This document shows, in pieces, positions 39,103-55,237 of a DNA stretch of 64,000 bases. Numbering within the stretch: position 1 is the first letter of the stretch; each line of letters starts with the position of its first letter. The notes below the pieces were generated by a model that saw only the letters and a program-made list of their open reading frames with translations, ran no database searches and was not told where the DNA came from. Source of the DNA: Terriglobia bacterium (lineage in GTDB: Bacteria; Acidobacteriota; Terriglobia; Terriglobales; Acidobacteriaceae); assembly GCA_041495845.1 (NCBI GenBank), contig JBGQDM010000005.1, positions 472 to 64,471 on the forward strand, given 5' to 3'. The position numbers and the translations under genes are program-made.

Positions 39103-41030
39103 CTTACCTCAAGGGTGCCAACGGTTTCGCTTTCCGGATACAGGTTCCGGATTTCGGCAACGAATTCGGGATCGAGCGAGGGAGAAAACCCTGGCGTTCC
39201 CAGCTGCTTTTTGTCGGTTTGTTCGGGGGTTTTGATCACCACAAGCTTGATCTGATGCACGGCAAGAAATTCGTGGATCCTGGACCTGGGATCGCCTGGC
39301 TCTTCCAGAAAGTCGAACAAAGCGCGCGACGGACTCTTCGATCCGGAGAGGAAGTAGAGTTCGGGCGCATCGGGTGCGGCAAAGATGTATTCACCCTGGC
39401 GATGCTGCTGAATCAGCGAAATCACCCTTTCGTACATTTGACCTTGCGCGGGCTTGACCCGGATTCCGGCGGCACGTGGCAGATGCAATTCGTAGGTCTG
39501 CTGTTCGCCGGTGTTCATCACGCCCATCGCGTTCACGTAGGACGGGGTGACTCGCAACACAAAGAACGCAAGGTAGGTGAGGGCCACGGCGATGCTCAGA
39601 AAGCGGGAGTAGTCAGCATTGGCGGCGATCAGGGCGAACCAGGCGAGTAGGAGGAGCGGGAGAACGTAAACCAGGTAGATCGGCGCGGCGTAGGGATATT
39701 GGATGAGGTTGCACAAAACGGTGGTGGCAACCAGCGCGAAGGCCTGCGCGCTGATTCGGCGGGAGAACGCTGCGACCACGGCGGTTGCCGGGACCAACAA
39801 CACCAGCGCATCCCACAGGAAATGGTAAGTGCCCTTCTGAAACCCGGCGACGACCACGGACGTTGCCAGCAAAACGGCGATAAGAATTTTCGCGTTGCGG
39901 CGGAGCGGCTGGCGCAGATCGCAGGCGGCGACCAGTGTGTAGGTCAGCACTCCGGTGGCGAGCAGCCTCACCCACTTCAAATTGCTTGGTTCGAGCGAAG
40001 CATAGGTCAATCGCTTCGCAGAGAACACAAAGACGCCCTGGAACCAGCTGAGCAGCGAGCCGGTGGCAGCGTAAGGAACCAGGAACAGGACCACGGGTGC
40101 GGCAAAGCCGCCGAGGAGAGCGAGCGCATCGCCAAAGAGACGACGGAAGCGCCGGCTCGGGGCAGTGTAAGTGGCAGCGAATTCCCGCCAGACCAGTAAT
40201 GACACCAAGGCCACACCGGGGATCACGAAGTGGATCCAGTAGCGGGGGGCATGGTTCCAGTGGATGAGTCGCACGAGAAGAAAGACGAAAACAGCGGACG
40301 CGGTGATTGCCACCAAGTTGAAAACGTTCGGGGCAGACCGCTGGTCGGAGCGGCGGTCGAGTTCCTGTTCGCGATAGAGCAGAAACAGCAGTGCGGCGGC
40401 GAGAAAGTAGAGCCCGGCGATCTTGGCGAGGAAAGAGAGCCCGCTGCACCCGCCGGCCACCACCAGCCAGCGACGACTGCCCGACTCCGTGATGCGAGAT
40501 TCGGTGCAGCGAGACTCGGTGAAGCGAAAAAGAGCGAGTACGCCGAATGTAGCAAAGAAGAGGTTGTACCAGGACGGGACCGCCTCGGAGTAATTGGGCA
40601 AACTCATCGCGATGGCGAGCAGCGTGGCCAACGCCGCGGCGCGCTCCGAAGCGAAGCGGCGGGCGAGGTTGAAGACGGCTGGGATCCAGGCAAGAAACAA
40701 CAGGAACACCGGGTAGCGAATCGCGACCAGATTTACGCCGAACACTCGCATGGTGGCGGCGTTCAGCAGGGTCAGGCCACCGCTGTAGAGATCAATGAAA
40801 TCGCGGTGCGGCAGTTCTCCGCGCAGCACGCGCTCGGCGGCCAGCGCGTAGGCGCCAGCATCATGCGGAATCCAACCTCGCTTCAGATAAACGCCACCGT
40901 AGAGTGCTCCCACCGCCAGCAAGGCGCAAACAATCAGCCAGCTCTGCGTCGAATACGGGCGCGGTAGGGACTTCGTGATCTCGGTGCCGGAGCCGATCAC
41001 GCCGGTGTTTGCGGAAGCGGAAGTCGCCAT
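39090..41030 (-). CDS. GT-C fold membrane glycosyltransferase (ArnT/PMT-like)
   Basis: 646 aa with more than 10 predicted TM helices. The first periplasmic loop (HDAGAYALAAERVLRGELPHRDFIDLYSGG) resembles the ArnT/PMT_2 family. Confidence 0.7.
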   Translation of the reverse strand: MATSASANTGVIGSGTEITKSLPRPYSTQSWLIVCALLAVGALYGGVYLKRGWIPHDAGAYALAAERVLRGELPHRDFIDLYSGGLTLLNAATMRVFGVNLVAIRYPVFLLFLAWIPAVFNLARRFASERAAALATLLAIAMSLPNYSEAVPSWYNLFFATFGVLALFRFTESRCTESRITESGSRRWLVVAGGCSGLSFLAKIAGLYFLAAALLFLLYREQELDRRSDQRSAPNVFNLVAITASAVFVFLLVRLIHWNHAPRYWIHFVIPGVALVSLLVWREFAATYTAPSRRFRRLFGDALALLGGFAAPVVLFLVPYAATGSLLSWFQGVFVFSAKRLTYASLEPSNLKWVRLLATGVLTYTLVAACDLRQPLRRNAKILIAVLLATSVVVAGFQKGTYHFLWDALVLLVPATAVVAAFSRRISAQAFALVATTVLCNLIQYPYAAPIYLVYVLPLLLLAWFALIAANADYSRFLSIAVALTYLAFFVLRVTPSYVNAMGVMNTGEQQTYELHLPRAAGIRVKPAQGQMYERVISLIQQHRQGEYIFAAPDAPELYFLSGSKSPSRALFDFLEEPGDPRSRIHEFLAVHQIKLVVIKTPEQTDKKQLGTPGFSPSLDPEFVAEIRNLYPESETVGTLEVRWKP

Positions 41031-41590
41031 GGATTGTCCGCAAAGCTAGCCGGAGGGATGGAAGTTGTCAACGGAGCGCTCGAGCAGCGGAAGCGCGGTG
41101 GTGGCCTTTCTGTCCCCGCCTCGCGCATTGGCTGAATTCGGTGGTGCGAACATTCTGCCTCCCACCCTTGCAAAAAACGCAAGGATGGGGCACCCCCAGG
41201 GTTGCTGGTGCACGCGAAATTCAAGATCAAGGGTGGGCCACCCGCCAAGGCGCAGACAATCAGCCAGCTCTGCGTCGAATACGGGCGCGGTAGGGACCGG
41301 GTGATCTCGGTGCCGTAGCCGATCGCGCCAGTGGTTGCGGAAGCGGAAGTCGCCATGGATTGTCCGCAAAGCTAGCGGTAGGGCGGGAAGTTGTCAACGG
41401 AGCAGGCTGGCAGCGGCGGGCTTCCCGCCGGCGCCTCGCGCCTTCGCTGCATTCGCGGTGCGAAGATTCTGCCTCCCGCCCTTTGCAAAGTGCGCAAAGA
41501 ACGAGGCACCCACGGGTTTGGTGGTGCAAACGAAATTCAAAATCTAAGGGCGGTCCACCCCGCCAAGAGTCAAGGGCGGTCCACCCGCCC
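40921..41590. repeat. Tandem, diverged ~326-bp duplication of the 5' end plus upstream region of the GT-C gene
   Basis: Unit A is 40921-41246 and unit B is 41247-41572, followed by a partial extra gggcggtccacccgcc. The first ~120 bp match best, and both units keep an ATG plus about 37 codons (MATSASA.TG.IG.GTEIT.SLPRPYSTQSWLIVCAL). Confidence 0.8.
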
Positions 41591-42496: not shown

Positions 42497-42603
42497 TCGC
42501 TCCCCTTGATCCGCCCGCGGGTTCTCCGCATTCCACGCACGCCCGCGCTGTTAGCTAAGTGGTAACGATGTAGCAGTTTGCACTTCTGTATGGCTATCCC
42601 CCC

Positions 42604-42617
42604 TCAGCTTCATTGAC
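42604..42617. repeat. Left target-site duplication of the casposon (tcagcttcattgac)
   Basis: Identical 14-mer at 55224-55237, each abutting the outer end of a TIR. Confidence 0.85.
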
Positions 42618-42760
42618 GGGTTGTTGTATGGCGACGGCAAAAGTGCTACACGTTACCAGTTGGTAATCGTTGGTGGGAGCCGGGGTGCGCGCGCGGGCGG
42701 AGTGAGAGCGCGCTGGCGAGTGGGGCGGGGCTCGGGCGGGTGAGAGCGGGCGCTGCGTGG
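42618..42760. repeat. Left terminal inverted repeat
   Basis: The reverse complement equals 55081-55223 at 140/143 positions (hand alignment). All mismatches are at the inner end. Confidence 0.9.
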
Positions 42761-42772
42761 TTTAATGCTGAG

Positions 42773-45700
42773 CTATGCGCCGGGCATCATTAGCGCAGGG
42801 TCCGTAACCTCGATTGTGTCCGCGCCAGCGCCTTTAGCAGAAAACACCGGAGTAAACGTGACCTCTTCTCCAACCTGCAACATCAGTTTGCCCAACCTAG
42901 ACGCCGGGCAGAAAAAACGAGGGTAATCCTTGTTCTCGATGAAGCAATATCCCGGCCTTACCGCTGCCACTCTCCCTTTGAGTCGGAGCGGCTTCACCCT
43001 ATCGGAACCTCTAGGACGAAAATACACCTTATTTGACTCGACATTAGAAAAGTTGCGTCTAGCACACTCCGCGAACACTTCCTGCGCATCACTGAACTGG
43101 CTGTTCATAAAAAGCATCCCGCCGAGCACTGCAATGTAACGTGGATCACGAAAACCGTAAAGGCTTCCGATCCGAATGGTGCTGATTGCCGTACTGTACG
43201 ATTCGCCCGTTCCTAGTAACGCAAGCGCATAAACAATGCAAGCACGGTACTCATCGGGTTCGGAAATCACTGCAGGCTTGATGACTTCTATTGTCTTTTG
43301 GGGCTCGTTCCTCTGCAAGTAGACGCGCCCCAGAACGTAGCGCGCTATGTTTCCCTCTTTGTCAGCCCGAACCGCCCGCTCTAATTCATAAATGCGCTCC
43401 GGATCGTTTCCCAAAAACTCTTGCACTTGTGCAGAAACAAGAAGTAAAGACTCGCGACTGTTGATTGACCGCAACCCTTCACTAATAATCTGTTCACATT
43501 TCGACAGGTACTCTGCCGAATCACCCTTCTCGCGCTTTGCCCAGTCCAAATACAGCGTCGCCAGGCCCGAATAGGCAAACTCGTCCTTGCTGGACATCGA
43601 CAAGCACTGCCGGAAGGACCTTTCCGCTTGAAGCAGTCTCTTTCGGCCTATTTCAACGCTAGCCGTTGTACGTGCAAGCTGCGCCAGGATCAATCCTTTT
43701 GTGTGGTGAAGAACCCGAACATCCTTACTGATTTCAATGGCGCTGTCGATCTGGCCAAGCGCCAATTCCGGCCTTCCTTCGTGCAGCAACATGCGGGCGT
43801 AATGCTGCTTGACATAGGGGCTTTGCGGGTCCTTCTTGCAGGCAGCTTCGAAAAATCTGGTTTTGCCGTCAAAACTGCTCAGGCTTGCGACGACGTTGTC
43901 AGATCGCACAAATTGTTCAAATGCGCTTTGATCTGCTCCATAGTTGAGGTTTAGCGCTTCGATTGATCGTTGAAGAAGGTTCTCTTTTTCAGCTGAATCG
44001 CCGCAACGCTCCCAAACGATTGCCGCAATAGCCCTGTGCCGCGCTCTCCCGCCGTACCGCCCGAGTGTCGAATCAATCAGATCATAGATAACAACCCCTT
44101 CGGTCTGGTTCTTTGTCTCTTCATACATTGTTGCTAGATCGCTACCCAGCAAGCTGGCCAATAAAACGTCGCGGACATACGCGCCGTGTGTGTAAAACCC
44201 GCACACGGCCAAATATAAGCGTCTGGACAGGTCGTTACCGATACCCTTAAATTCATCGATCAGAATTGCATCGAAATTATTGTCTTCCGTTGCTTCGCGA
44301 AGTGTGACCAGCAATTCTTTGCCGTGTTTGCTCTCTATTACTGCAAACTGCATGTCAGGAGTCAGGTTCGCCAGCTTGTTAAGTTCTCCGTTTTGCTTCA
44401 ACGTCTCCAACAGCCGCATTATCTCGGCATCGCTCAGGCTCTCAAGCTCGTACTCCTTAGGGAAATAACGGCCACGTGACTGCCTCCATTCGTTCTTCCT
44501 TTCTCCCATCACTAAGAACGCAGGGCTTTTCAGTCTTCTTAATCGGTCAAAAACCCTGTGGAGGTCGCGCGAATGGTCAGCCGCGTTGTCAACAAAGAAA
44601 AACTTTTTATCTTGCCCAAAAAGAGAAGCTGCGAACTCCAAGTCTCCGTCAATCACCGACGCTCCGGCCTTGTGGTAAAAAATGTGGCCCGCACGATCTG
44701 AAACCAATTGAGTCGCCAGCATGGTCAGCAGTGTTGTTGTTCCATAACCTGCCGGTCCGATAATGATGGCTGAGCCGCTAGAACTGCTGGTGCTTGTATA
44801 AAAATCTAAAAGCTGGTCATAGACTTCTTCCTGAATGTCGCGCTCAAATGGGATTTTCTTAGCAGCCAGCGTCCAGTTTGGCCGATCTCCCCTGAAAAAG
44901 GGTTTCGTGTTGGGCTGTTCACTGAAGTCCGCAGCGTTCACGTATCTCCAGTGAGCGAGCAGCCTCAGGACGGCAGTAGGATTGCGCTCGTATTCATCAG
45001 CGAGAGGGGCCGGAATCTTGTGCTTTGTTTTTCCGAGTAAGTCTATAGTATAAGCTGACTTATCCAGCACAACGGACGCAGTACCGACGAAATCCGCGAA
45101 GCTAGCATCTATCGTTTCCACGCCCTTGCGAGTCAGGATTTCGGCATTTAGAGCTTGTGTACGACGGGCGACCCTGTACGAGGGAAGGAGTGGTGATGGG
45201 TAAAATTCCTGGCGCATTTCCTCCAAGACTAGCTTCCAGTTGGGGTCACGGTTCGAGTAGCCAACGTACAAGATTGTTGAGGTTGCAAACTCCTTCTTTA
45301 GCAGTTCGAACAGCATTCGGCGTGGGTCCCGAAAGGTCACGTAGTCACTCTGGGTGACTACGATGAATGGTTTGCCGATTCCTGAGAAGCGCCCATGCAG
45401 GTGGTAAACGGGAACATCGAAGCGGGGGTCGATTGGGAATAGTTCAGGGGTGATTCCGAAGGGAACGGGCTTCAACGGAGGACTTGGGTTCAAGTTGTAA
45501 GCAGTTTCAATAACGTTATCGTAGTTTGTTGTGAAAATCGCCTTCCATCGAATTCTCGTTAGCCATTGAAAAAGTTCGTCGGGCTGGAGGTCGCCAACCT
45601 GCGATTTGATAAAGATCTCAAGCTCAGATCTACCTATCCGGAGTTCAACAATTTCAGCCACTTCCGCCAGATCATATTCGCCGCCGGTGTCAATATTGAA

Positions 45701-45883
45701 CTGTGCAGCCATGCGACGGGCCAATTCCTGCCCATCAGGTGCAGGTTTGCCTTCCTTGTCCAGAATGTGCTCCCCGAGACCTGCGCCCACGAACAATACA
45801 CAGTTCCCGGACTCCAGGGCGGTTCTCAATCCGAGCGGAACGATAACGCTTTCGCTGGCAGAGACGGAGGGTGGTGTTGCCAT
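42773..45883 (-). CDS. SIR2-like domain / STAND-type NTPase / TPR / C-terminal cold-shock-like domain protein (Avs5-like putative anti-phage defence)
   Basis: N-terminal SIR2_2 pattern (CVLFVGAGLG, IFTTNYDNVIE, VYHLHGRF). P-loop-like IIIGPAGYGTTTLL. Long helical/TPR-like C-terminal half. The last ~70 aa (KGRVAAVRPGYCFIENKDYPRFFCPAS...GEEVTF) are CSD-like. Confidence 0.78.
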   Translation of the reverse strand: MATPPSVSASESVIVPLGLRTALESGNCVLFVGAGLGEHILDKEGKPAPDGQELARRMAAQFNIDTGGEYDLAEVAEIVELRIGRSELEIFIKSQVGDLQPDELFQWLTRIRWKAIFTTNYDNVIETAYNLNPSPPLKPVPFGITPELFPIDPRFDVPVYHLHGRFSGIGKPFIVVTQSDYVTFRDPRRMLFELLKKEFATSTILYVGYSNRDPNWKLVLEEMRQEFYPSPLLPSYRVARRTQALNAEILTRKGVETIDASFADFVGTASVVLDKSAYTIDLLGKTKHKIPAPLADEYERNPTAVLRLLAHWRYVNAADFSEQPNTKPFFRGDRPNWTLAAKKIPFERDIQEEVYDQLLDFYTSTSSSSGSAIIIGPAGYGTTTLLTMLATQLVSDRAGHIFYHKAGASVIDGDLEFAASLFGQDKKFFFVDNAADHSRDLHRVFDRLRRLKSPAFLVMGERKNEWRQSRGRYFPKEYELESLSDAEIMRLLETLKQNGELNKLANLTPDMQFAVIESKHGKELLVTLREATEDNNFDAILIDEFKGIGNDLSRRLYLAVCGFYTHGAYVRDVLLASLLGSDLATMYEETKNQTEGVVIYDLIDSTLGRYGGRARHRAIAAIVWERCGDSAEKENLLQRSIEALNLNYGADQSAFEQFVRSDNVVASLSSFDGKTRFFEAACKKDPQSPYVKQHYARMLLHEGRPELALGQIDSAIEISKDVRVLHHTKGLILAQLARTTASVEIGRKRLLQAERSFRQCLSMSSKDEFAYSGLATLYLDWAKREKGDSAEYLSKCEQIISEGLRSINSRESLLLVSAQVQEFLGNDPERIYELERAVRADKEGNIARYVLGRVYLQRNEPQKTIEVIKPAVISEPDEYRACIVYALALLGTGESYSTAISTIRIGSLYGFRDPRYIAVLGGMLFMNSQFSDAQEVFAECARRNFSNVESNKVYFRPRGSDRVKPLRLKGRVAAVRPGYCFIENKDYPRFFCPASRLGKLMLQVGEEVTFTPVFSAKGAGADTIEVTDPALMMPGA

Positions 45884-45943: not shown

Positions 45944-47470
45944 TTAGGCTTCTTGGGGCCACAGGCTAACGAGCTGTGCCAGTGCGTGCCAGTGCCTGGG
46001 ATGCGGACGCCGCCTGCCTGCGCGGATGTCGGTCGCATAGGGGAGCGAGATGCCCAGCGTTGATGCAATTGCGGACACGGGGAAGTCTCGGAGGGCGGGC
46101 TGAATCTTTTCCTGGTATCCGCTCTCGGTCAGCCAATTTGGATGTTCTGAGGGCTGCCAGGCCTTCAGTGCGGCGGCATGACGGAGGCGGCTGGCTGAGC
46201 GTAGGGCTTCTGCCTCCGGAGTATGCGTGGCTACTCGCCCGAGCCGCGCAATCTCGATCATTCTCTTGCTGGCCTCAGCCCCGGCACACGAAGCGCAATG
46301 GATCTTTCCTTCCTTGAGTGCGACGCCGCAAGTGCGACAAATCTTCTCGGGTGCTGGAGCTGGTTTCGTGACAGGCGCGTACGCTTCGCCTCTTGCTTCG
46401 CTTCGGTGGCGCTGCGTCAAGCGCGTAGCGGGAACGCTCTTGCGCGCGGCTTTGGAAGTGGAACTCCAGAGCGCGCGAGCAACCCACTCAGCTAGTGGTG
46501 CAACGGCACGACCCCAAGTAGGCGCAGTTTCGGATAGTCGGGTGGCGAATGACCCGATGAGGCGGCAGTTGCCATCTCGCCGCTCGAAGAACCATTCCCG
46601 CTTGAGCGGTTGGCGGGTGATCCAGTCCAGCAGGAATGCGTCTACCTGAGGTCGGACCGGCTCCATGAGATCGCAAGCGAGGCTGTCGCGGTTCGGGGTG
46701 TCAACATGCAACATTCCAAGACCGGGATCGAGTCCAAGAGCCGCCGCCGCAAGGCGAGCTTCGGATTCCAACAGCCCGTAGAGGAAGTTCAACATGGCCC
46801 CGGACGGGTTCGCTGCCAGTCGCGGCGATCCCGAGAGGGGAGACTGACGGGTTCCGAAGGTTCGCCAGTGGCCAGGTACACGCGGCATGTCGTTCTTCGG
46901 AAAACTAATTGGGAGATCGCGCCACGCGGACCAGTAGACGGCACCGGCCTGGGCTTCGACCAAGCGAACTGCCGGAATGGTTTCCGCATTCGCCAGTTGA
47001 CTGCGAAGATTGGAGATCTCATCGGCGCTTTCAGAATCGAGCAGCTTTTCGCGGACGACTTTTTCCTGCCCAAGAAGTTTTTGGGAGATCAACTCCCGCG
47101 CGATGCGTTGGGCATCGCCGGAGTGAATCGCCAACGCTTGCGCGCGTCGCAGGCGGGCATCGGAAGGGCGAACGGGCCCCGTGGTGGCCAGCACCGAGCC
47201 GTCGCGTTCCAGCATTACGAAAGCTGCGTCCTGGTCGGCAAGCCAGCGCAGCGCTTCAAGTGTGATGAAGCCGTCGCTCCCAATCATGACCAGCCTCTTT
47301 AGGCCGTGATTCACGCGGGGCAAGCGAATTGTCCGGCGCTCGTCCGCGATTCCATCGTGCAAAAGTAAATGCCCGGCATGAACCTGGACGCGGATGCCGT
47401 AGCCATTCAAGACCAGCACGCCAGATTTGCGGATGGCGGAGGACTGAGGTAGGTTTTGCGAAGCCGTCAT
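45944..47470 (-). CDS. cas1: Stand-alone Cas1-family integrase (casposase) with C-terminal zinc ribbon and HTH
   Basis: Cas1 signature: VEAQAGAVYWSAW (Glu), NPSGAMLNFLYGLLESEARLAAAALGLDPGLGMLHVD (His), SLACDLMEPVRPQVD (Asp/Glu). C-terminal CRTC...CASC and an HTH-like LGISLPYATDIRAG. The start at 47470 has a GGAGAG RBS. Confidence 0.85.
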   Translation of the reverse strand: MTASQNLPQSSAIRKSGVLVLNGYGIRVQVHAGHLLLHDGIADERRTIRLPRVNHGLKRLVMIGSDGFITLEALRWLADQDAAFVMLERDGSVLATTGPVRPSDARLRRAQALAIHSGDAQRIARELISQKLLGQEKVVREKLLDSESADEISNLRSQLANAETIPAVRLVEAQAGAVYWSAWRDLPISFPKNDMPRVPGHWRTFGTRQSPLSGSPRLAANPSGAMLNFLYGLLESEARLAAAALGLDPGLGMLHVDTPNRDSLACDLMEPVRPQVDAFLLDWITRQPLKREWFFERRDGNCRLIGSFATRLSETAPTWGRAVAPLAEWVARALWSSTSKAARKSVPATRLTQRHRSEARGEAYAPVTKPAPAPEKICRTCGVALKEGKIHCASCAGAEASKRMIEIARLGRVATHTPEAEALRSASRLRHAAALKAWQPSEHPNWLTESGYQEKIQPALRDFPVSAIASTLGISLPYATDIRAGRRRPHPRHWHALAQLVSLWPQEA

Positions 47471-47555
47471 GGAGGTTTCTCTCCTTCGGCGGTCAGGGCT
47501 GTTCGTCTGCTCCAACAGGCGGGCAGCCCGTATAAACTGTTGATAAGTATACTAC

Positions 47556-48016: not shown

Positions 48017-48562
48017 GTGGCGCGCAAACAGCGCGAGCGCCAGAAGGCCCCCAGCAAGGTTTCTTCTAGCGCCCGCAATACCAAAACTCGGCTCATTTTA
48101 CCATCCCGACTCTCCGAGCGCAGCTTCGCTGCCCGTGATCGTGCCATGCACGTCCTGGGGGATATGCGGCATGGCGCTTCGCTTTCGCGTGCTGCCCGCG
48201 ATCATGGAGTAAGCGTACGAACAATCAGACGCTACGTCGGCGGGGCGCTCTTACAAGAGCGTGCGGGCGGGAGAATCCGCGCGACCAAAAGCGACCGCTT
48301 TGTCCGCTACCTGCAACTCCCAGGCCGGCTCGGACCCATCGAACAAAGGGTTCGCGGATCAAGACAGGCTAGTGAAGCCGCGAGATACAAGGCAGCGCTC
48401 AACAGGCGCCTTCGCGGTGACCGTGGCGCGCTCGCGCCTTGGCACGGAAAGAAGATCGCGGGCATTGAACTCATAACAGACGCGGCCACTCTGAAGAGCC
48501 TCGCCGAGAGAGATCTCCTTCCTTACTCTCTCTACCGATCCCTTTCTGGCGGTGGGGCATGA
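48017..48562 (+). CDS. Hypothetical protein with HTH segment
   Basis: ASLSRAARDHGVSVRTIRRYV is an HTH-like segment. The gene is in an operon with the flanking genes, with a 4-nt overlap downstream. Confidence 0.5.
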   Translation: MARKQRERQKAPSKVSSSARNTKTRLILPSRLSERSFAARDRAMHVLGDMRHGASLSRAARDHGVSVRTIRRYVGGALLQERAGGRIRATKSDRFVRYLQLPGRLGPIEQRVRGSRQASEAARYKAALNRRLRGDRGALAPWHGKKIAGIELITDAATLKSLAERDLLPYSLYRSLSGGGA

Positions 48563-48855
48563 TCGCACTCAGCGGAGTGTCGCGTCGTTCCCGTGGGTGC
48601 TGTGTTTTCTGCGGATCGCGAAAACAACTCCAAGAGCACCATCTCGGCGGTCGCAACCACGCCCGTCACTTCACAATCACCCTCTGCCGTGAACATCACG
48701 AAGCAGTCACGCTCGCTATCACCAGAGCGGGGGTAAACATGCGCTATACCAGCGACAAAATGGAACGCTCAAGGCGCGCGCGCCAAGCCGCATACGTGTT
48801 TCTTTGGTTCCTGGATGACATCGTTTTCACACCAACCTGCGAGGAGACAGCATGA
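48559..48855 (+). CDS. HNH-like endonuclease-fold protein
   Basis: CVFCGSRKQLQEHHLGGRNHARHFTITLCREHHEAV matches the pattern CxxC...HH...N...CxxHH. Confidence 0.55.
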   Translation: MIALSGVSRRSRGCCVFCGSRKQLQEHHLGGRNHARHFTITLCREHHEAVTLAITRAGVNMRYTSDKMERSRRARQAAYVFLWFLDDIVFTPTCEETA

Positions 48856-52371: not shown

Positions 52372-52854
52372 TTAGTGGAGAGTGCAGCTCCCCTGATTGA
52401 GGGAGTCGAAGACCCCGGCCAGGCCGGTCATCAAGTTGCGATTGTCGGTGGCGATGGCGTCGTCAATCGTGGTGTTGGTCTTATTGGTGAACGGGGCCAA
52501 AGCGTTGCAGGCCGCAGGACTTGAGTTCCCGGCATTGGCCAGTCGCACGATGGCCTGGCGGAGCAGGATGACCTCAGCGCCGGCAAAGGTGCTGCCGTCA
52601 CCACAGACGGTGGTGGGCGAAAGCAGCAGTTGCAAGAAGGTCAGCGCGCCCACGCAGGCGTCAACGTTCGGAAAGACCGAACTCACCAAGGTGTCCTTAT
52701 TGAAAACATTGTTGGCGCAGGGACCGCTGTTGAGGAACTGGGAGTGGTTTTTGTAAAAACCAACGGTGCAGTGCTGGTTCACATTGGCAGACGCGGGCAG
52801 CGCGACGCCAAGGATGAAGAGGAAGCAAAGCGTCAGCAAGATCCGGTTTTTCAT
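52372..52854 (-). CDS. Secreted cysteine-rich hypothetical protein (casposon cargo)
   Basis: Signal peptide MKNRILLTLCFLFILGVALPASA. Seven Cys in the mature part. No known domain. Confidence 0.55.
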   Translation of the reverse strand: MKNRILLTLCFLFILGVALPASANVNQHCTVGFYKNHSQFLNSGPCANNVFNKDTLVSSVFPNVDACVGALTFLQLLLSPTTVCGDGSTFAGAEVILLRQAIVRLANAGNSSPAACNALAPFTNKTNTTIDDAIATDNRNLMTGLAGVFDSLNQGSCTLH

Positions 52855-53389: not shown

Positions 53390-54994
53390 CTACGGTGGCA
53401 CTTGCTTGAAACGCAGCCGCCCGATGCGAGAGCCCCAGAAACCCCCGTCGATAACCTTTTCGTTCACAAACCAAGCGTTGCCTTGCGGATCAACGGCGAC
53501 AGAGGAATAGTCGCCCCACCGTTGGCCAAAGGCACCGTCAAAACTATTAGTGATGCACGTCGAACTGGTAAAAACGGGGATGCCATTCCCGAGGCTCCCA
53601 ACTGGAGCAGACGCGCGTTTTCCCGCAAATCGGACATCCGCATTGCGATTGAGGCTTGTATCGATCGAAGTCCATGTCACGTAAATGTTGTTATCCGCAT
53701 CCGCTGCAATTGAGGCATTGAAATCATTACTTGTACTCGCGCGGGCGAAAAATATCCCGCTATCGACGAGTGTGTGCGTGCTGGTGTCGATCTTGTAAAA
53801 CTTGGGAGTAGCCAGGCCGCTGACATTGATGGTATGGGTTTGATAAAGGAACCTTCCCACTTGGGTGCTAGCATTCGTAAACCGAGCGTCAAATGTTTCG
53901 ACCAAGTTCCTGGGGGCATCGCCGCAGGGGGAGGGTTGTGGCGCATTGGGCGGAATCGTATACGGAGCCACTGGAACCTCGAAGGGCCCTGTCACGTCAG
54001 CAGCGGATGGACGACTGGAGTCTGTCAGCGCGTATAGATAGAGGACGTTATTCTCTGGAGTCGCGGCAATCAAATATGTGTTCGGGTTTTGGTCTGACAC
54101 GATAGGTGGCGCCAGAGTGGCCTGGAGTCCGGAAAAACGCGCGATCGAAAACTCCATCCCGTTATAGAGCCTCGCCTTAGCGATCGTGAACAGCTCCGCA
54201 CCAGCGAAATTCGCGGACAAAGGGTTGCCCGTGATGATGATGGAGTCCTGATCCATACCGAGTTGCGGGAAATCCAAAAACGCATTGTTGTCCAAGGCGC
54301 TGACTTCGATGTTGTAGATCCAATATGGGCCAGTCGCATCGCCTGTTTTTGAAACCGCCACGAACATGGGTTGTACAAAATCCGGCGGGAAAGCATAACT
54401 GATCGATATAACAACCCAGCGATCCCAGATCGGATCGTGCAGGACACGCGAGTCGGCGGTAAACGAGGTGTTTCCGTAAAAAGCTGCTAGCCCACTCTCG
54501 AAAAGCAATGCGCCCGACGCCTTGTCGTATATGTCAATAGCATGGTTCGTGACCTCGACGTATTGAGTGTTCCCCGCAGCTCCATGGGTGTCCGGTGGAT
54601 GAGCCGCCGCATAATGTTGATCTGTCCCGTCAAAATTGAGAGAGGCATCAAGGACAACGCCGCCACCAGTTGCCAGCGGAACCGCACTGGGTAGGGAACG
54701 AGGGGTTCGTTTCATTGAACGAGCGGCGGCCTTCAGCGCTCGGTATTTCTCCAAAGGAATCGTCAGGTGGTTGTGCAGCTCGATCTCCGGTCCGGGCTTT
54801 GCATAGGTTTGCGCGTCTTTACGCATCTGGTTCTGATCGCGCGACACTGCCGCCGCGACACTCATCGTTACTCTACGCACCTTCCGATCATTGACCTGGC
54901 CGGCCGCGAAGACGTTCGCTCGAATGCAAGTCAAAAGCAGAACAATAGCAATCGCAGCCCAACTCGGGGCGATCCGGGGAACCAGTCTTGACAT
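53390..54994 (-). CDS. Secreted hypothetical protein, possibly beta-propeller-like (casposon cargo)
   Basis: Signal/TM segment APSWAAIAIVLLLTCIRANVFA. Long ORF, with the start placed at the ATG at 54994. No recognised catalytic motif. Confidence 0.55.
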   Translation of the reverse strand: MSRLVPRIAPSWAAIAIVLLLTCIRANVFAAGQVNDRKVRRVTMSVAAAVSRDQNQMRKDAQTYAKPGPEIELHNHLTIPLEKYRALKAAARSMKRTPRSLPSAVPLATGGGVVLDASLNFDGTDQHYAAAHPPDTHGAAGNTQYVEVTNHAIDIYDKASGALLFESGLAAFYGNTSFTADSRVLHDPIWDRWVVISISYAFPPDFVQPMFVAVSKTGDATGPYWIYNIEVSALDNNAFLDFPQLGMDQDSIIITGNPLSANFAGAELFTIAKARLYNGMEFSIARFSGLQATLAPPIVSDQNPNTYLIAATPENNVLYLYALTDSSRPSAADVTGPFEVPVAPYTIPPNAPQPSPCGDAPRNLVETFDARFTNASTQVGRFLYQTHTINVSGLATPKFYKIDTSTHTLVDSGIFFARASTSNDFNASIAADADNNIYVTWTSIDTSLNRNADVRFAGKRASAPVGSLGNGIPVFTSSTCITNSFDGAFGQRWGDYSSVAVDPQGNAWFVNEKVIDGGFWGSRIGRLRFKQVPP

Positions 54995-55080
54995 ATGCTT
55001 CACCTCATACTGGCCGGACATGCGGAGGGAAACCGTGGAGATTCTGCACCCTCGCCTGGTCACTGTCAAGTCCTCGGGGA

Positions 55081-55223
55081 CCGCGCAGCGCCCGCTCTTA
55101 CTCGCCCGAGCCCCGCCCCACTCGCCAGCGCGCTCTCACTCCGCCCGCGCGCGCACCCCGGCTCCCACCAACGATTACCAACTGGTAACGTGTAGCACTT
55201 TTGCCGTCGCCATACAACAACCC
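55081..55223. repeat. Right terminal inverted repeat
   Basis: Reverse complement of 42618-42760 (140/143). Confidence 0.9.
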
Positions 55224-55237
55224 TCAGCTTCATTGAC
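55224..55237. repeat. Right target-site duplication (tcagcttcattgac)
   Basis: Identical to 42604-42617. Confidence 0.85.

Follow-up and report, generated by a model that had tools for sequence, protein, structure and literature searches.

The window analyzed here, a stretch of 64,000 nucleotides from a Terriglobia bacterium (NCBI GenBank assembly GCA_041495845.1, contig JBGQDM010000005.1, positions 472 to 64,471 of the forward strand), contains a complete 12.6-kb casposon, a Cas1-mobilized transposon, whose boundaries are given in the window sequence by terminal inverted repeats and a target-site duplication. The casposon carries a gene for a 1036-residue protein in which a SIR2 domain, a STAND NTPase module, a helical tetratricopeptide repeat (TPR) region and a cold-shock domain (CSD) follow one another. 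Probably, this protein is a single-polypeptide, NLR-like (STAND) sensor directed against phages or other mobile genetic elements (MGEs), with the SIR2 domain serving as NADase effector, and its gene is a recently acquired foreign passenger of an acidobacterial casposon. By comparison with characterized systems, a defense role appears to be the best reading of the cargo gene. An earlier sequence-only reading of the window had proposed the same domain order and the casposon location, both of which hold, with Pfam, AlphaFold2 (AF2) and Foldseek agreeing on the former; its classification of the protein as Avs5-type does not hold, as set out below.

The SIR2_2 domain presents the Rossmann motif GAGxG at residues 33-37 and the catalytic residues N120, within TTNYD, and H163, within HLHG. 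The homolog search yielded 424 proteins at E<=1e-5, and residue counts were taken from the best 120 of these. N120, H163 and G164 occur in 120/120 homologs and G33, G35 and G37 in at least 118, bearing out the GAG, TTNYD and HLHG pattern named earlier, and profile support was found for both the SIR2 and the STAND parts (Table 1). The closest SIR2 sequences belong to defense NADases, including ThsA in PADLOC (3.7e-24) and SeThsA (2.4e-26), KomC, BcThsA and DSR2 in the PDB, with EfAvs5 (9jap) matched by the SIR2 part at 1.5e-8. All PADLOC v2.0.0 matches, comprising ThsA, Dsr2, LmuA and PDC-S25, are confined to the SIR2 region. The protein contains no effector domain besides SIR2, and the catalytic Asn equivalent to N120 is essential in EfAvs5 (PMC11897194).

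The AF2 model of the full-length protein has a predicted local distance difference test (pLDDT) score of 76.6, with the TPR region, where Pfam TPR matches lie between residues 677 and 937, being all-helical at a pLDDT of ~85-95. The C-terminal segment does have a cold-shock fold. When a profile built from 36 C-termini is searched against the PDB, the 11 best-ranked sequences are all CspB/CspD (E 7e-4 to 1e-2), aligned across the whole CSD, while the AF2 model of residues 945-1036 (pLDDT 81) contains five beta strands, and Foldseek matches it to bacterial cold-shock proteins and to Y-box/Unr CSDs with template-modeling (TM) scores of 0.7-0.8, a root-mean-square deviation of ~2 Å and 25-30% identity. 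Pfam CSD matches on single C-terminal sequences are sub-threshold (best 0.0019, 4/36 members), and with a single CspA sequence hhalign brings no more than the last two strands into register, so that the domain was established by the profile and fold searches. The domain is also homologous to the C-termini of sister clades that retain the Walker A Lys (hhalign 97.6%, E 2.7e-12), and it is therefore ancestral to the superfamily rather than an appendage of the window gene, which corrects the earlier description of an appended peculiarity.

The Walker A motif of the NTPase module reads GPAGYGTT, as had been read before, with T382 standing in the translation at the position of the expected Lys. The substitution had been considered unusual. 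Position 382 is V/T/I/M/A among the homologs, with Lys in 0/120, inside a strongly conserved surrounding motif, [GA][PS]AGYGx[TS]T; the loss is fixed in the whole clade, and a Lys-less P-loop has been described for SAMD9 (PMC5445408). Since the P-loop lacks Lys in all 120 homologs, the feature is no private lesion of the window gene. The NTPase-domain profile was additionally searched against 1.84 billion cluster representatives (50% identity clustering), of which ~1700 match at E<=1e-3, 345 of them at E<=1e-30. Among the top 150, the closest group, of 40 sequences, is Lys-less, whereas the sister groups (E 1e-41 to 1e-57) carry canonical AGxGK[ST] in 87/129 scorable top representatives. Because the sister clades keep GK[ST], the loss of Lys is a derived trait of the window's clade.

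Comparison of the Lys-less clade with its Lys-containing sisters indicates that the change of K382 to I/T/V/M co-occurs with that of A/S380 to Y and of N467 to R. Residues 380, 382 and 467 (window ~44483-44746) form a candidate compensatory pattern in the nucleotide pocket. The remainder of the site is retained, with Walker B D432 present in 40/40 and sensor R462 in 38/40 Lys-less representatives, and with N464, E465 and W466 of the motif R462-x-N464-E465-W466 invariant in the best 120 homologs. Most likely, judging from these residues and from related proteins, the site still binds nucleotide and is unlikely to hydrolyze it.

These patterns bear directly on whether the gene is a decaying passenger, in which a degenerate Walker A marks a dead NTPase and the gene is under no selection. 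The missing Lys would fit such decay, as would the foreign GC content and the recent acquisition. However, the 3.1-kb open reading frame (ORF) is intact and an identical protein is found in three further samples, GPAGYGxTT is highly conserved across 120 homologs from bacteria and archaea and co-varies with Y380 and R467, and all other functional motifs are conserved. The conservation pattern largely refutes decay, leaving it the least credible of the explanations considered, with hardly any probability attached to it. On alignment evidence, the family appears to be under purifying selection.

The window protein is an unremarkable member of the Lys-less clade of a SIR2-nSTAND_NTPase5-TPR-CSD superfamily found in bacteria and archaea. 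The best 120 of the 424 homologs are near-full-length (1000-1060 residues, 91-100% of the query) and share 47-56% identity with it, except the three closest at 79-100% (identical, 86% and 79%); they derive from Terriglobales, Parvibaculum, Chloroflexota, Bacillota and Nitrososphaera metagenome-assembled genomes (MAGs). Most of the best 150 of the ~1700 NTPase-profile representatives have the same layout, measuring ~1020-1050 residues with the NTPase at ~residues 310-650. The superfamily is unnamed, its members being annotated in MAGs as 'SIR2 family protein', 'P-loop NTPase' or 'TPR repeat protein', and homology to the window protein spans the whole chain, with 48-86% identity across 97-99% of its length. 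The window copy differs from its relatives in location only, lying in a casposon.

Whole-chain comparison of the full-length AF2 model with the PDB, using Foldseek, places EfAvs5 (9jap) first at E 4.6e-22, followed at ranks 2-6 by human SAMD9 (9zjv, 9zjr, 9zjw, 9zjz and 9zjs; E 4.6e-18 to 1.2e-16), and then by the AVAST5 filament 9nc9 (4.6e-11), DSR2, ThsA and Avs3. The SAMD9 alignments are the longest (~1200 columns) and reach the highest TM scores, 0.31-0.34. Characterized Avs5 proteins combine SIR2, nSTAND3 (PF20720) and TPR/Sel1/PPR repeats, with an essential Walker A Lys (PMC11897194, PMC12931631), which is K379 in EfAvs5 and K363 in PaAvs5; EfAvs5 binds ATP without hydrolyzing it and is activated by filament formation. 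The window protein resembles them in its SIR2_2 domain with catalytic Asn, its central STAND module and its C-terminal helical repeats. Conversely, it possesses nSTAND5 instead of nSTAND3, a Lys-less instead of a canonical P-loop and a CSD that Avs5 lacks, and the sequence similarity is confined to SIR2.

A true Avs5 ortholog, working like EfAvs5 and PaAvs5, in which an ATP-bound nSTAND3 module senses a phage protein by way of the helical repeats, filaments assemble and the SIR2 NADase is activated, would account for the shared domain order, for EfAvs5 being the top whole-chain match and for the SIR2 match to 9jap. The NTPase, however, belongs to a different Pfam family, scoring 101.7 bits with nSTAND_NTPase5 (PF25199) and 18.1 bits with nSTAND3, below the cut-off of 27.2 bits; the essential Lys is absent, the C-terminal CSD has no counterpart in Avs5, no PADLOC Avs model matches, and a HMMER search of the PDB with the NTPase profile at E<=10 retrieves no Avs5 chain, and no SAMD9 or other STAND match either. 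Orthology to Avs5 is accordingly quite improbable. Because nSTAND3 falls below its cut-off while nSTAND5 scores 101.7 bits, the window protein, as judged by sequence profiles, is Avs5-like in outline and is not a member of the Avs5 family.

SAMD9 and SAMD9L are human antiviral factors, and their bacterial analogs are termed 'Avs9'. According to its 2017 description by Mekhedov, Makarova and Koonin (PMC5445408), the SAMD9 family has a core in which a variant SIR2 domain is followed by a STAND P-loop whose Lys is replaced (GGT/S, with an upstream His), by TPRs and, at the C-terminus, by an OB fold 'most similar to cold-shock proteins'; some members lack AlbA_2. The Lys-less P-loop and the cold-shock-like OB fold, both singled out in the sequence-only reading, are hallmarks of the family in that description. 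SAMD9L, which is Lys-less, holds an intact NTP without hydrolysis, and its OB domain packs on the NTPase's N-lobe and against the SIR2 domain of its partner; dimerization takes place through the SIR2-like and OB domains, and SAMD9L is not known to act as a sirtuin. The window protein shares this core domain order, SIR2-like, STAND P-loop, TPR and cold-shock-like OB fold. Its P-loop also lacks Lys, but in another form, with T/V/I/M standing in its clade where SAMD9 has Gly and with no upstream His. It differs further in starting directly with SIR2, with no Pfam match to SAM or AlbA_2, and in SIR2 catalytic residues that are intact where those of SAMD9 are 'variant'. At the sequence level, hhalign of the family profile against residues 724-1589 of human SAMD9 (a sequence 100% identical to PDB 37ib/9zjr) gives E 0.46 and aligns only the P-loops, and the C-terminal half of SAMD9 yields no Pfam match. 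It is thus not established that the window protein belongs to the SAMD9 family, the link being one of architecture and modeled fold, and the loss of Lys in the two lineages is probably independent and convergent, because the sister clades of the window protein keep Lys.

The SAMD9 likeness would also fit a different function, in which the protein would be a SAMD9-type regulator whose SIR2 domain is only an oligomerization scaffold. Its output would then not be NAD+ hydrolysis; the CSD might, for instance, sequester nucleic acid, or a separate effector might be recruited. The shared core architecture, the Lys-less P-loop and the dimer interface of SAMD9L all agree with it. Against this stand the absence of AlbA_2 or any other effector domain, the lack of a conserved partner gene at the homolog loci, and NAD-binding glycines and catalytic Asn and His that are essentially invariant, unlike those of a degenerate scaffold, as well as closest SIR2 sequences that are active NADases and the failure to find a sequence-level link to SAMD9. 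We regard a scaffold role as unlikely, although it is the least unlikely of the rival explanations. The Thoeris protein ThsA and DSR2, which have the closest SIR2 domains by sequence, are comparable in this domain only: the ThsA matches in PADLOC and the PDB end at ~residues 254-255, there is no SLOG domain, the DSR2 C-terminal domain is missing, and Pfam and PADLOC scans of the element reveal no ThsB neighbor or TIR gene.

For the favored reading, an NLR-like sensor with a SIR2 NADase effector, a sequence of events can be proposed. At rest, the TPR and cold-shock C-terminal region would fold back on the nucleotide-binding module, keeping the protein closed. An invader ligand may free this lock, either a protein bound on the TPR solenoid or single-stranded nucleic acid bound on the CSD, upon which the NTPase and SIR2 domains would self-associate, and the assembled SIR2 domains would hydrolyze NAD+, aborting the infection. 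The nucleotide held by the NTPase module would most likely be a structural cofactor or switch that is not hydrolyzed, by analogy with SAMD9L and EfAvs5.

Several observations weigh against a defense sensor of this type. The PADLOC check proposed in the sequence-only reading gave its matches in the SIR2 region, and no PADLOC Avs/AVAST model matches the cargo protein; additionally, neither PADLOC nor NCBIfam has a model that reaches the STAND, TPR or CSD parts. Every Avs5 tested depends on its Walker A Lys, so that a module without this residue might operate in quite another way or be no more than a scaffold. The SIR2-like domain of SAMD9/9L is considered non-catalytic, the effector there being AlbA_2, a domain that the window protein lacks. 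Within the CSD the RNP1-like GYxFI is kept, whereas RNP2 is degenerate, reading F-[LF]-C-P-[GA] (FLCPG in the window protein) instead of VFVHF, making nucleic-acid binding uncertain: judged from these motifs it is plausible, not assured, and the CSD as sensor, proposed from the beginning, is speculation. One of the five other homolog contexts examined, in Parvibaculum, has no defense neighbors, and a promoter and terminator scan around the cargo gene found nothing above shuffled expectation. Finally, in the literature searched, no member of the superfamily is known to have been tested for defense.

The position and composition of the gene identify it as casposon cargo. It lies within the terminal inverted repeats (144 nt) and target-site duplications (16 bp), together with cas1 and a family B DNA polymerase (PolB) gene, 60 nt downstream of cas1 and in the same orientation, a gap that the sequence-only reading had given exactly; its stop codon is 11 nt from the left terminal inverted repeat, where 12 had been counted. 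The GC content, placed by eye at 45-50%, was calculated as 51.3% (56% at third codon positions, GC3), exceeding that estimate, while the foreign composition implied by it stands, with cas1 at 61.6%, the element at 55.2% and the flanks at 60.5-61.0%. Contigs from two JGI metagenomes and one NCBI assembly, three further samples in all, encode the identical protein. The cargo gene and the three other element-specific ORFs are found in 0/79 related casposon loci, and the closest non-identical homolog (86%) sits in an integrase-bearing island, not in a casposon, the four other homolog contexts examined being likewise outside casposons. Across these five contexts and the 79 related loci, the window copy is the only superfamily member seen within a casposon.

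The homologs are solitary genes, with no conserved partner gene across the contexts examined. Toxin-antitoxin (TA) or defense genes adjoin them in 4/5 contexts, the neighbor sets being VapBC; AbiE with MazE/PIN; RES-Xre with E1/E2/JAB; and PemK with ArdC and Dcm/Vsr in the integrase island. Near one homolog, a RES-Xre pair is accompanied by a 760-residue Prok-E2_A/ThiF/Prok-JAB fusion (L008:12974-15256, minus strand), a ubiquitin-like conjugation module of a type characteristic of defense loci. These surroundings must be considered together with the location of the window gene, inside the element, adjoining cas1 and co-directional with it, which raises the alternative that the gene serves the casposon itself as an addiction or stabilization module or as a weapon against rival mobile elements. 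The trigger might then be that the element is lost, or else single-stranded DNA intermediates produced by its rivals, which the CSD, from its fold, could in principle bind, and the frequent TA neighbors of the homologs fit as well. However, the gene is absent from 79/79 related casposons, no antitoxin-like partner is present, and the five other homologs examined lie outside casposons, which leaves no specific tie to casposon biology. Service to the casposon therefore appears slightly less likely than a scaffold role and a little more so than Avs5 orthology.

The related casposons show the window gene to be part of a wider pattern. A single search for Cas1 identified 79 relatives in GTDB genomes (loci L010-L088, for example L071:1685-18115), at 48-67% identity and nearly all from Acidobacteriota, with Terriglobia, Bryobacterales and Acidoferrales among the hosts. 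PolB lies within 10 kb in 70 of these loci, the helix-turn-helix (HTH) gene in 56 and the HNH gene in 18, and terminal inverted repeats delimit ~35 of the 79 elements. Their non-core content, which is highly variable, comprises 238 ORFs in 174 clusters, 98 representatives of which were scanned with PADLOC. The matches include a cyclase (7.5e-121) of the cyclic-oligonucleotide-based anti-phage signaling system (CBASS), a patatin effector (7.2e-146), a cNMP-TIR effector (7.7e-101) and PDC-M54A (7.7e-212), which is a STAND protein, and further PDC-M30B, PDC-M41B, PDC-M72A, HEC-01A, PDC-S66, AbiTii, AbiU, a type IIG restriction-modification system and methyltransferases. Immediately downstream of cas1, in the same position as the window gene, stand PDC-M54A (L035), a TIR effector (L021), PD-Lambda-5_A (L068) and a methyltransferase (L053). 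Given this defense cargo, the window gene is one instance of a general habit and not an oddity, and the acidobacterial casposon is a mobile defense carrier.

In some of these genomes two related cas1 loci lie 13-15 kb apart, or cas1 is included in large inverted duplications (1.6 kb at 82% identity; 2.6 kb at 98.7%), as seen for L068/L074 (OY969555.1), L062/L078 (CAVYXN010000015.1), L033 and L087, an arrangement that suggests tandem or nested casposon insertions. One Cas1, 64% identical to the acidobacterial ones, comes from a bin labeled 'Candidatus Micrarchaeota archaeon' (L025, CAVXKJ010000003.1), reflecting either mis-binning or inter-domain transfer.

The element as a whole resembles the casposons described by Krupovic et al. 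2014, being bacterial family 3-like in its Cas1 with C-terminal Zn-ribbon/HTH-like extension, PolB, HNH and HTH genes, long terminal inverted repeats and a target-site duplication in the 14-16-bp class. It differs in its acidobacterial host, a soil bacterium, in its 1036-residue SIR2-STAND cargo and in a PolB weakly matching protein-primed-type polymerases. The database matches of PolB are weak throughout, with DNA_pol_B_2 (PF03175) at 8e-5, phi29 polymerase at 7.7e-3 and Pol alpha motif C at 0.018, and all PolB signatures are present in an alignment of the window polymerase with 16 homologs (17 sequences), with consensus motifs ExoI FDTET, ExoII NLPFD, A DFTSxYP, B KILANAxxYG and C DTDS. Matches to protein-primed-type polymerases, here DNA_pol_B_2 and phi29 polymerase, are a side observation; a protein-primed PolB is a hallmark of thaumarchaeal family 1 casposons and not of bacterial family 3. 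Coordinates of the protein domains and element features are collected in Table 1.

Table 1. Domains of the cargo protein, features of the casposon in the window, and a CBASS locus in a related casposon
Feature	Coordinates	Strand	Evidence or remark
SIR2 - nSTAND5 NTPase - TPR - cold-shock-domain protein, 1036 aa	42773..45883	-	ATG-initiated ORF
SIR2 (SIR2_2) NADase-type effector domain, aa ~17-260	45104..45835	-	Pfam at aa 115-242, 5.5e-18
STAND NTPase (NOD) module, aa ~328-650	43934..44902	-	Pfam nSTAND_NTPase5 (PF25199) at aa 328-471, 4.2e-29
Lys-less P-loop G376-P-A-G-Y-G-T382-T-T384	44732..44758	-	conservation in homologs
Helical TPR region, aa ~662-945	43049..43900	-	Pfam TPR_14, TPR_19, TPR_16, ANAPC3
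C-terminal cold-shock domain (OB fold), aa ~965-1027	42803..42991	-	PDB profile search, AF2, Foldseek
Left target-site duplication CCTCAGCTTCATTGAC	42602..42617	.	abuts left terminal inverted repeat
Left terminal inverted repeat	42618..42761	.	144 nt, 98% complementary to right repeat
cas1 (casposase)	45944..47515	-	Pfam Cas_Cas1 2.1e-39; NCBIfam cas1 2.5e-28
ORF, 189 aa	47578..48147	-	no Pfam, PADLOC or NCBIfam match; 0/79 related loci
HTH protein, casposon core gene	48017..48562	+	Pfam HTH_23 9e-4; kept in 56/79 related loci
Small HNH-like nuclease candidate	48559..48855	+	weak Pfam RecA_dep_nuc 3.7e-3; in 18/79 related loci
Family B DNA polymerase, 999 aa	48964..51963	+	weak database matches and motifs; in 70/79 related loci
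ORF, 160 aa, element-specific cargo	52372..52854	-	no family match; absent from related loci; GC3 0.79
ORF, 534-559 aa, element-specific cargo	53390..55069	-	absent from related loci
Right terminal inverted repeat	55080..55223	.	144 nt, partner of left repeat
Right target-site duplication CCTCAGCTTCATTGAC	55222..55237	.	first two bases ambiguous with end of terminal inverted repeat
Two-gene CBASS (type I), related casposon	L071:3046-4927	-	PADLOC per-protein check

The target-site duplication CCTCAGCTTCATTGAC is a perfect 16-bp direct repeat with exactly two copies in the window, against a chance expectation of 0. Within the left terminal inverted repeat, positions 42694-42751 contain ~3 copies of a G+C-rich 20-nt subterminal repeat with the consensus CGGGCGGGTGAGAGCGGGCT, with a presumed mirror copy in the right repeat; Cas1 or the HTH protein might bind there. 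The element sits in an intergenic region between divergent genes, a short way upstream of a gene for a LytTR response regulator, and three other contigs carrying it share the identical insertion site. A tRNA gene as insertion target was rejected, the window containing no tRNA gene, and exact-match searches of a metagenome collection recovered 0 empty target sites and 0 matches to the termini of the terminal inverted repeats. The 64-kb window has no CRISPR array, and no other Cas matches occur among the neighboring genes.

Among the remaining ORFs, the 189-residue one, which certain public annotations include, shares 130 nt with the HTH gene and is possibly a miscall, because only the HTH gene is kept in related casposons. 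The ORF of 534-559 residues displays faint hints of beta-propeller repeats, with Pfam SBBP and Reg_prop matches that are sub-threshold only. In the left flank, positions 40920-41567 hold two adjoining ~325-bp copies, 83% identical and overlapping small minus-strand ORFs, which suggests that a small gene was duplicated in tandem.

Parts of these findings have precedents. The superfamily architecture has already been noticed in the literature through SAMD9, and Sir2-like casposon cargo was present in the founding casposon paper, which lists three casposons with divergent Sir2-like (PF13289) proteins, in addition to methyltransferases, a restriction endonuclease and a KAP ATPase (PMC4046053). A 2024 survey applied PADLOC to 48 reference casposons and found a share of defense genes lower than in pipolins. 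In an incomplete literature collection, no publication was found on acidobacterial casposons or on casposons with CBASS or SIR2-STAND cargo. The casposon context and the defense cargo of the related elements are accordingly the more novel part, and the Lys-less clade deserves to be studied experimentally as a variant.

A more ambitious reading joins three proposals: a hydrolysis-dead, permanently nucleotide-loaded STAND scaffold in which R467 and Y380 compensate for Lys, a CSD acting as sensor of single-stranded phage or MGE nucleic acid, and acidobacterial casposons as undescribed, widespread Cas1-mobilized defense islands. That all three apply together is doubtful, if less so than any of the rival explanations weighed above. 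If true, the combination would represent a nucleic-acid-sensing bacterial NLR, a tractable bacterial model for the switching of human SAMD9/9L, and present-day cases in which Cas1 is physically coupled to innate-immunity modules.

The analysis sets a large bacterial and archaeal family beside Avs5 and human SAMD9/9L, both of them immune proteins under intensive study, and extends the rule that mobile elements carry defense islands to Cas1-driven, self-synthesizing transposons. A cas1 gene adjoining innate-immunity genes is the configuration invoked in models of CRISPR-Cas origin, and the acidobacterial casposons supply natural examples of it, a conceptual link and not evidence for those models; the bearing of the cargo gene on CRISPR origins, raised in the sequence-only reading, is speculation and suggestive only. 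For the family itself, the Lys-less clade may offer a simple bacterial system for understanding how a Lys-less STAND switch works.

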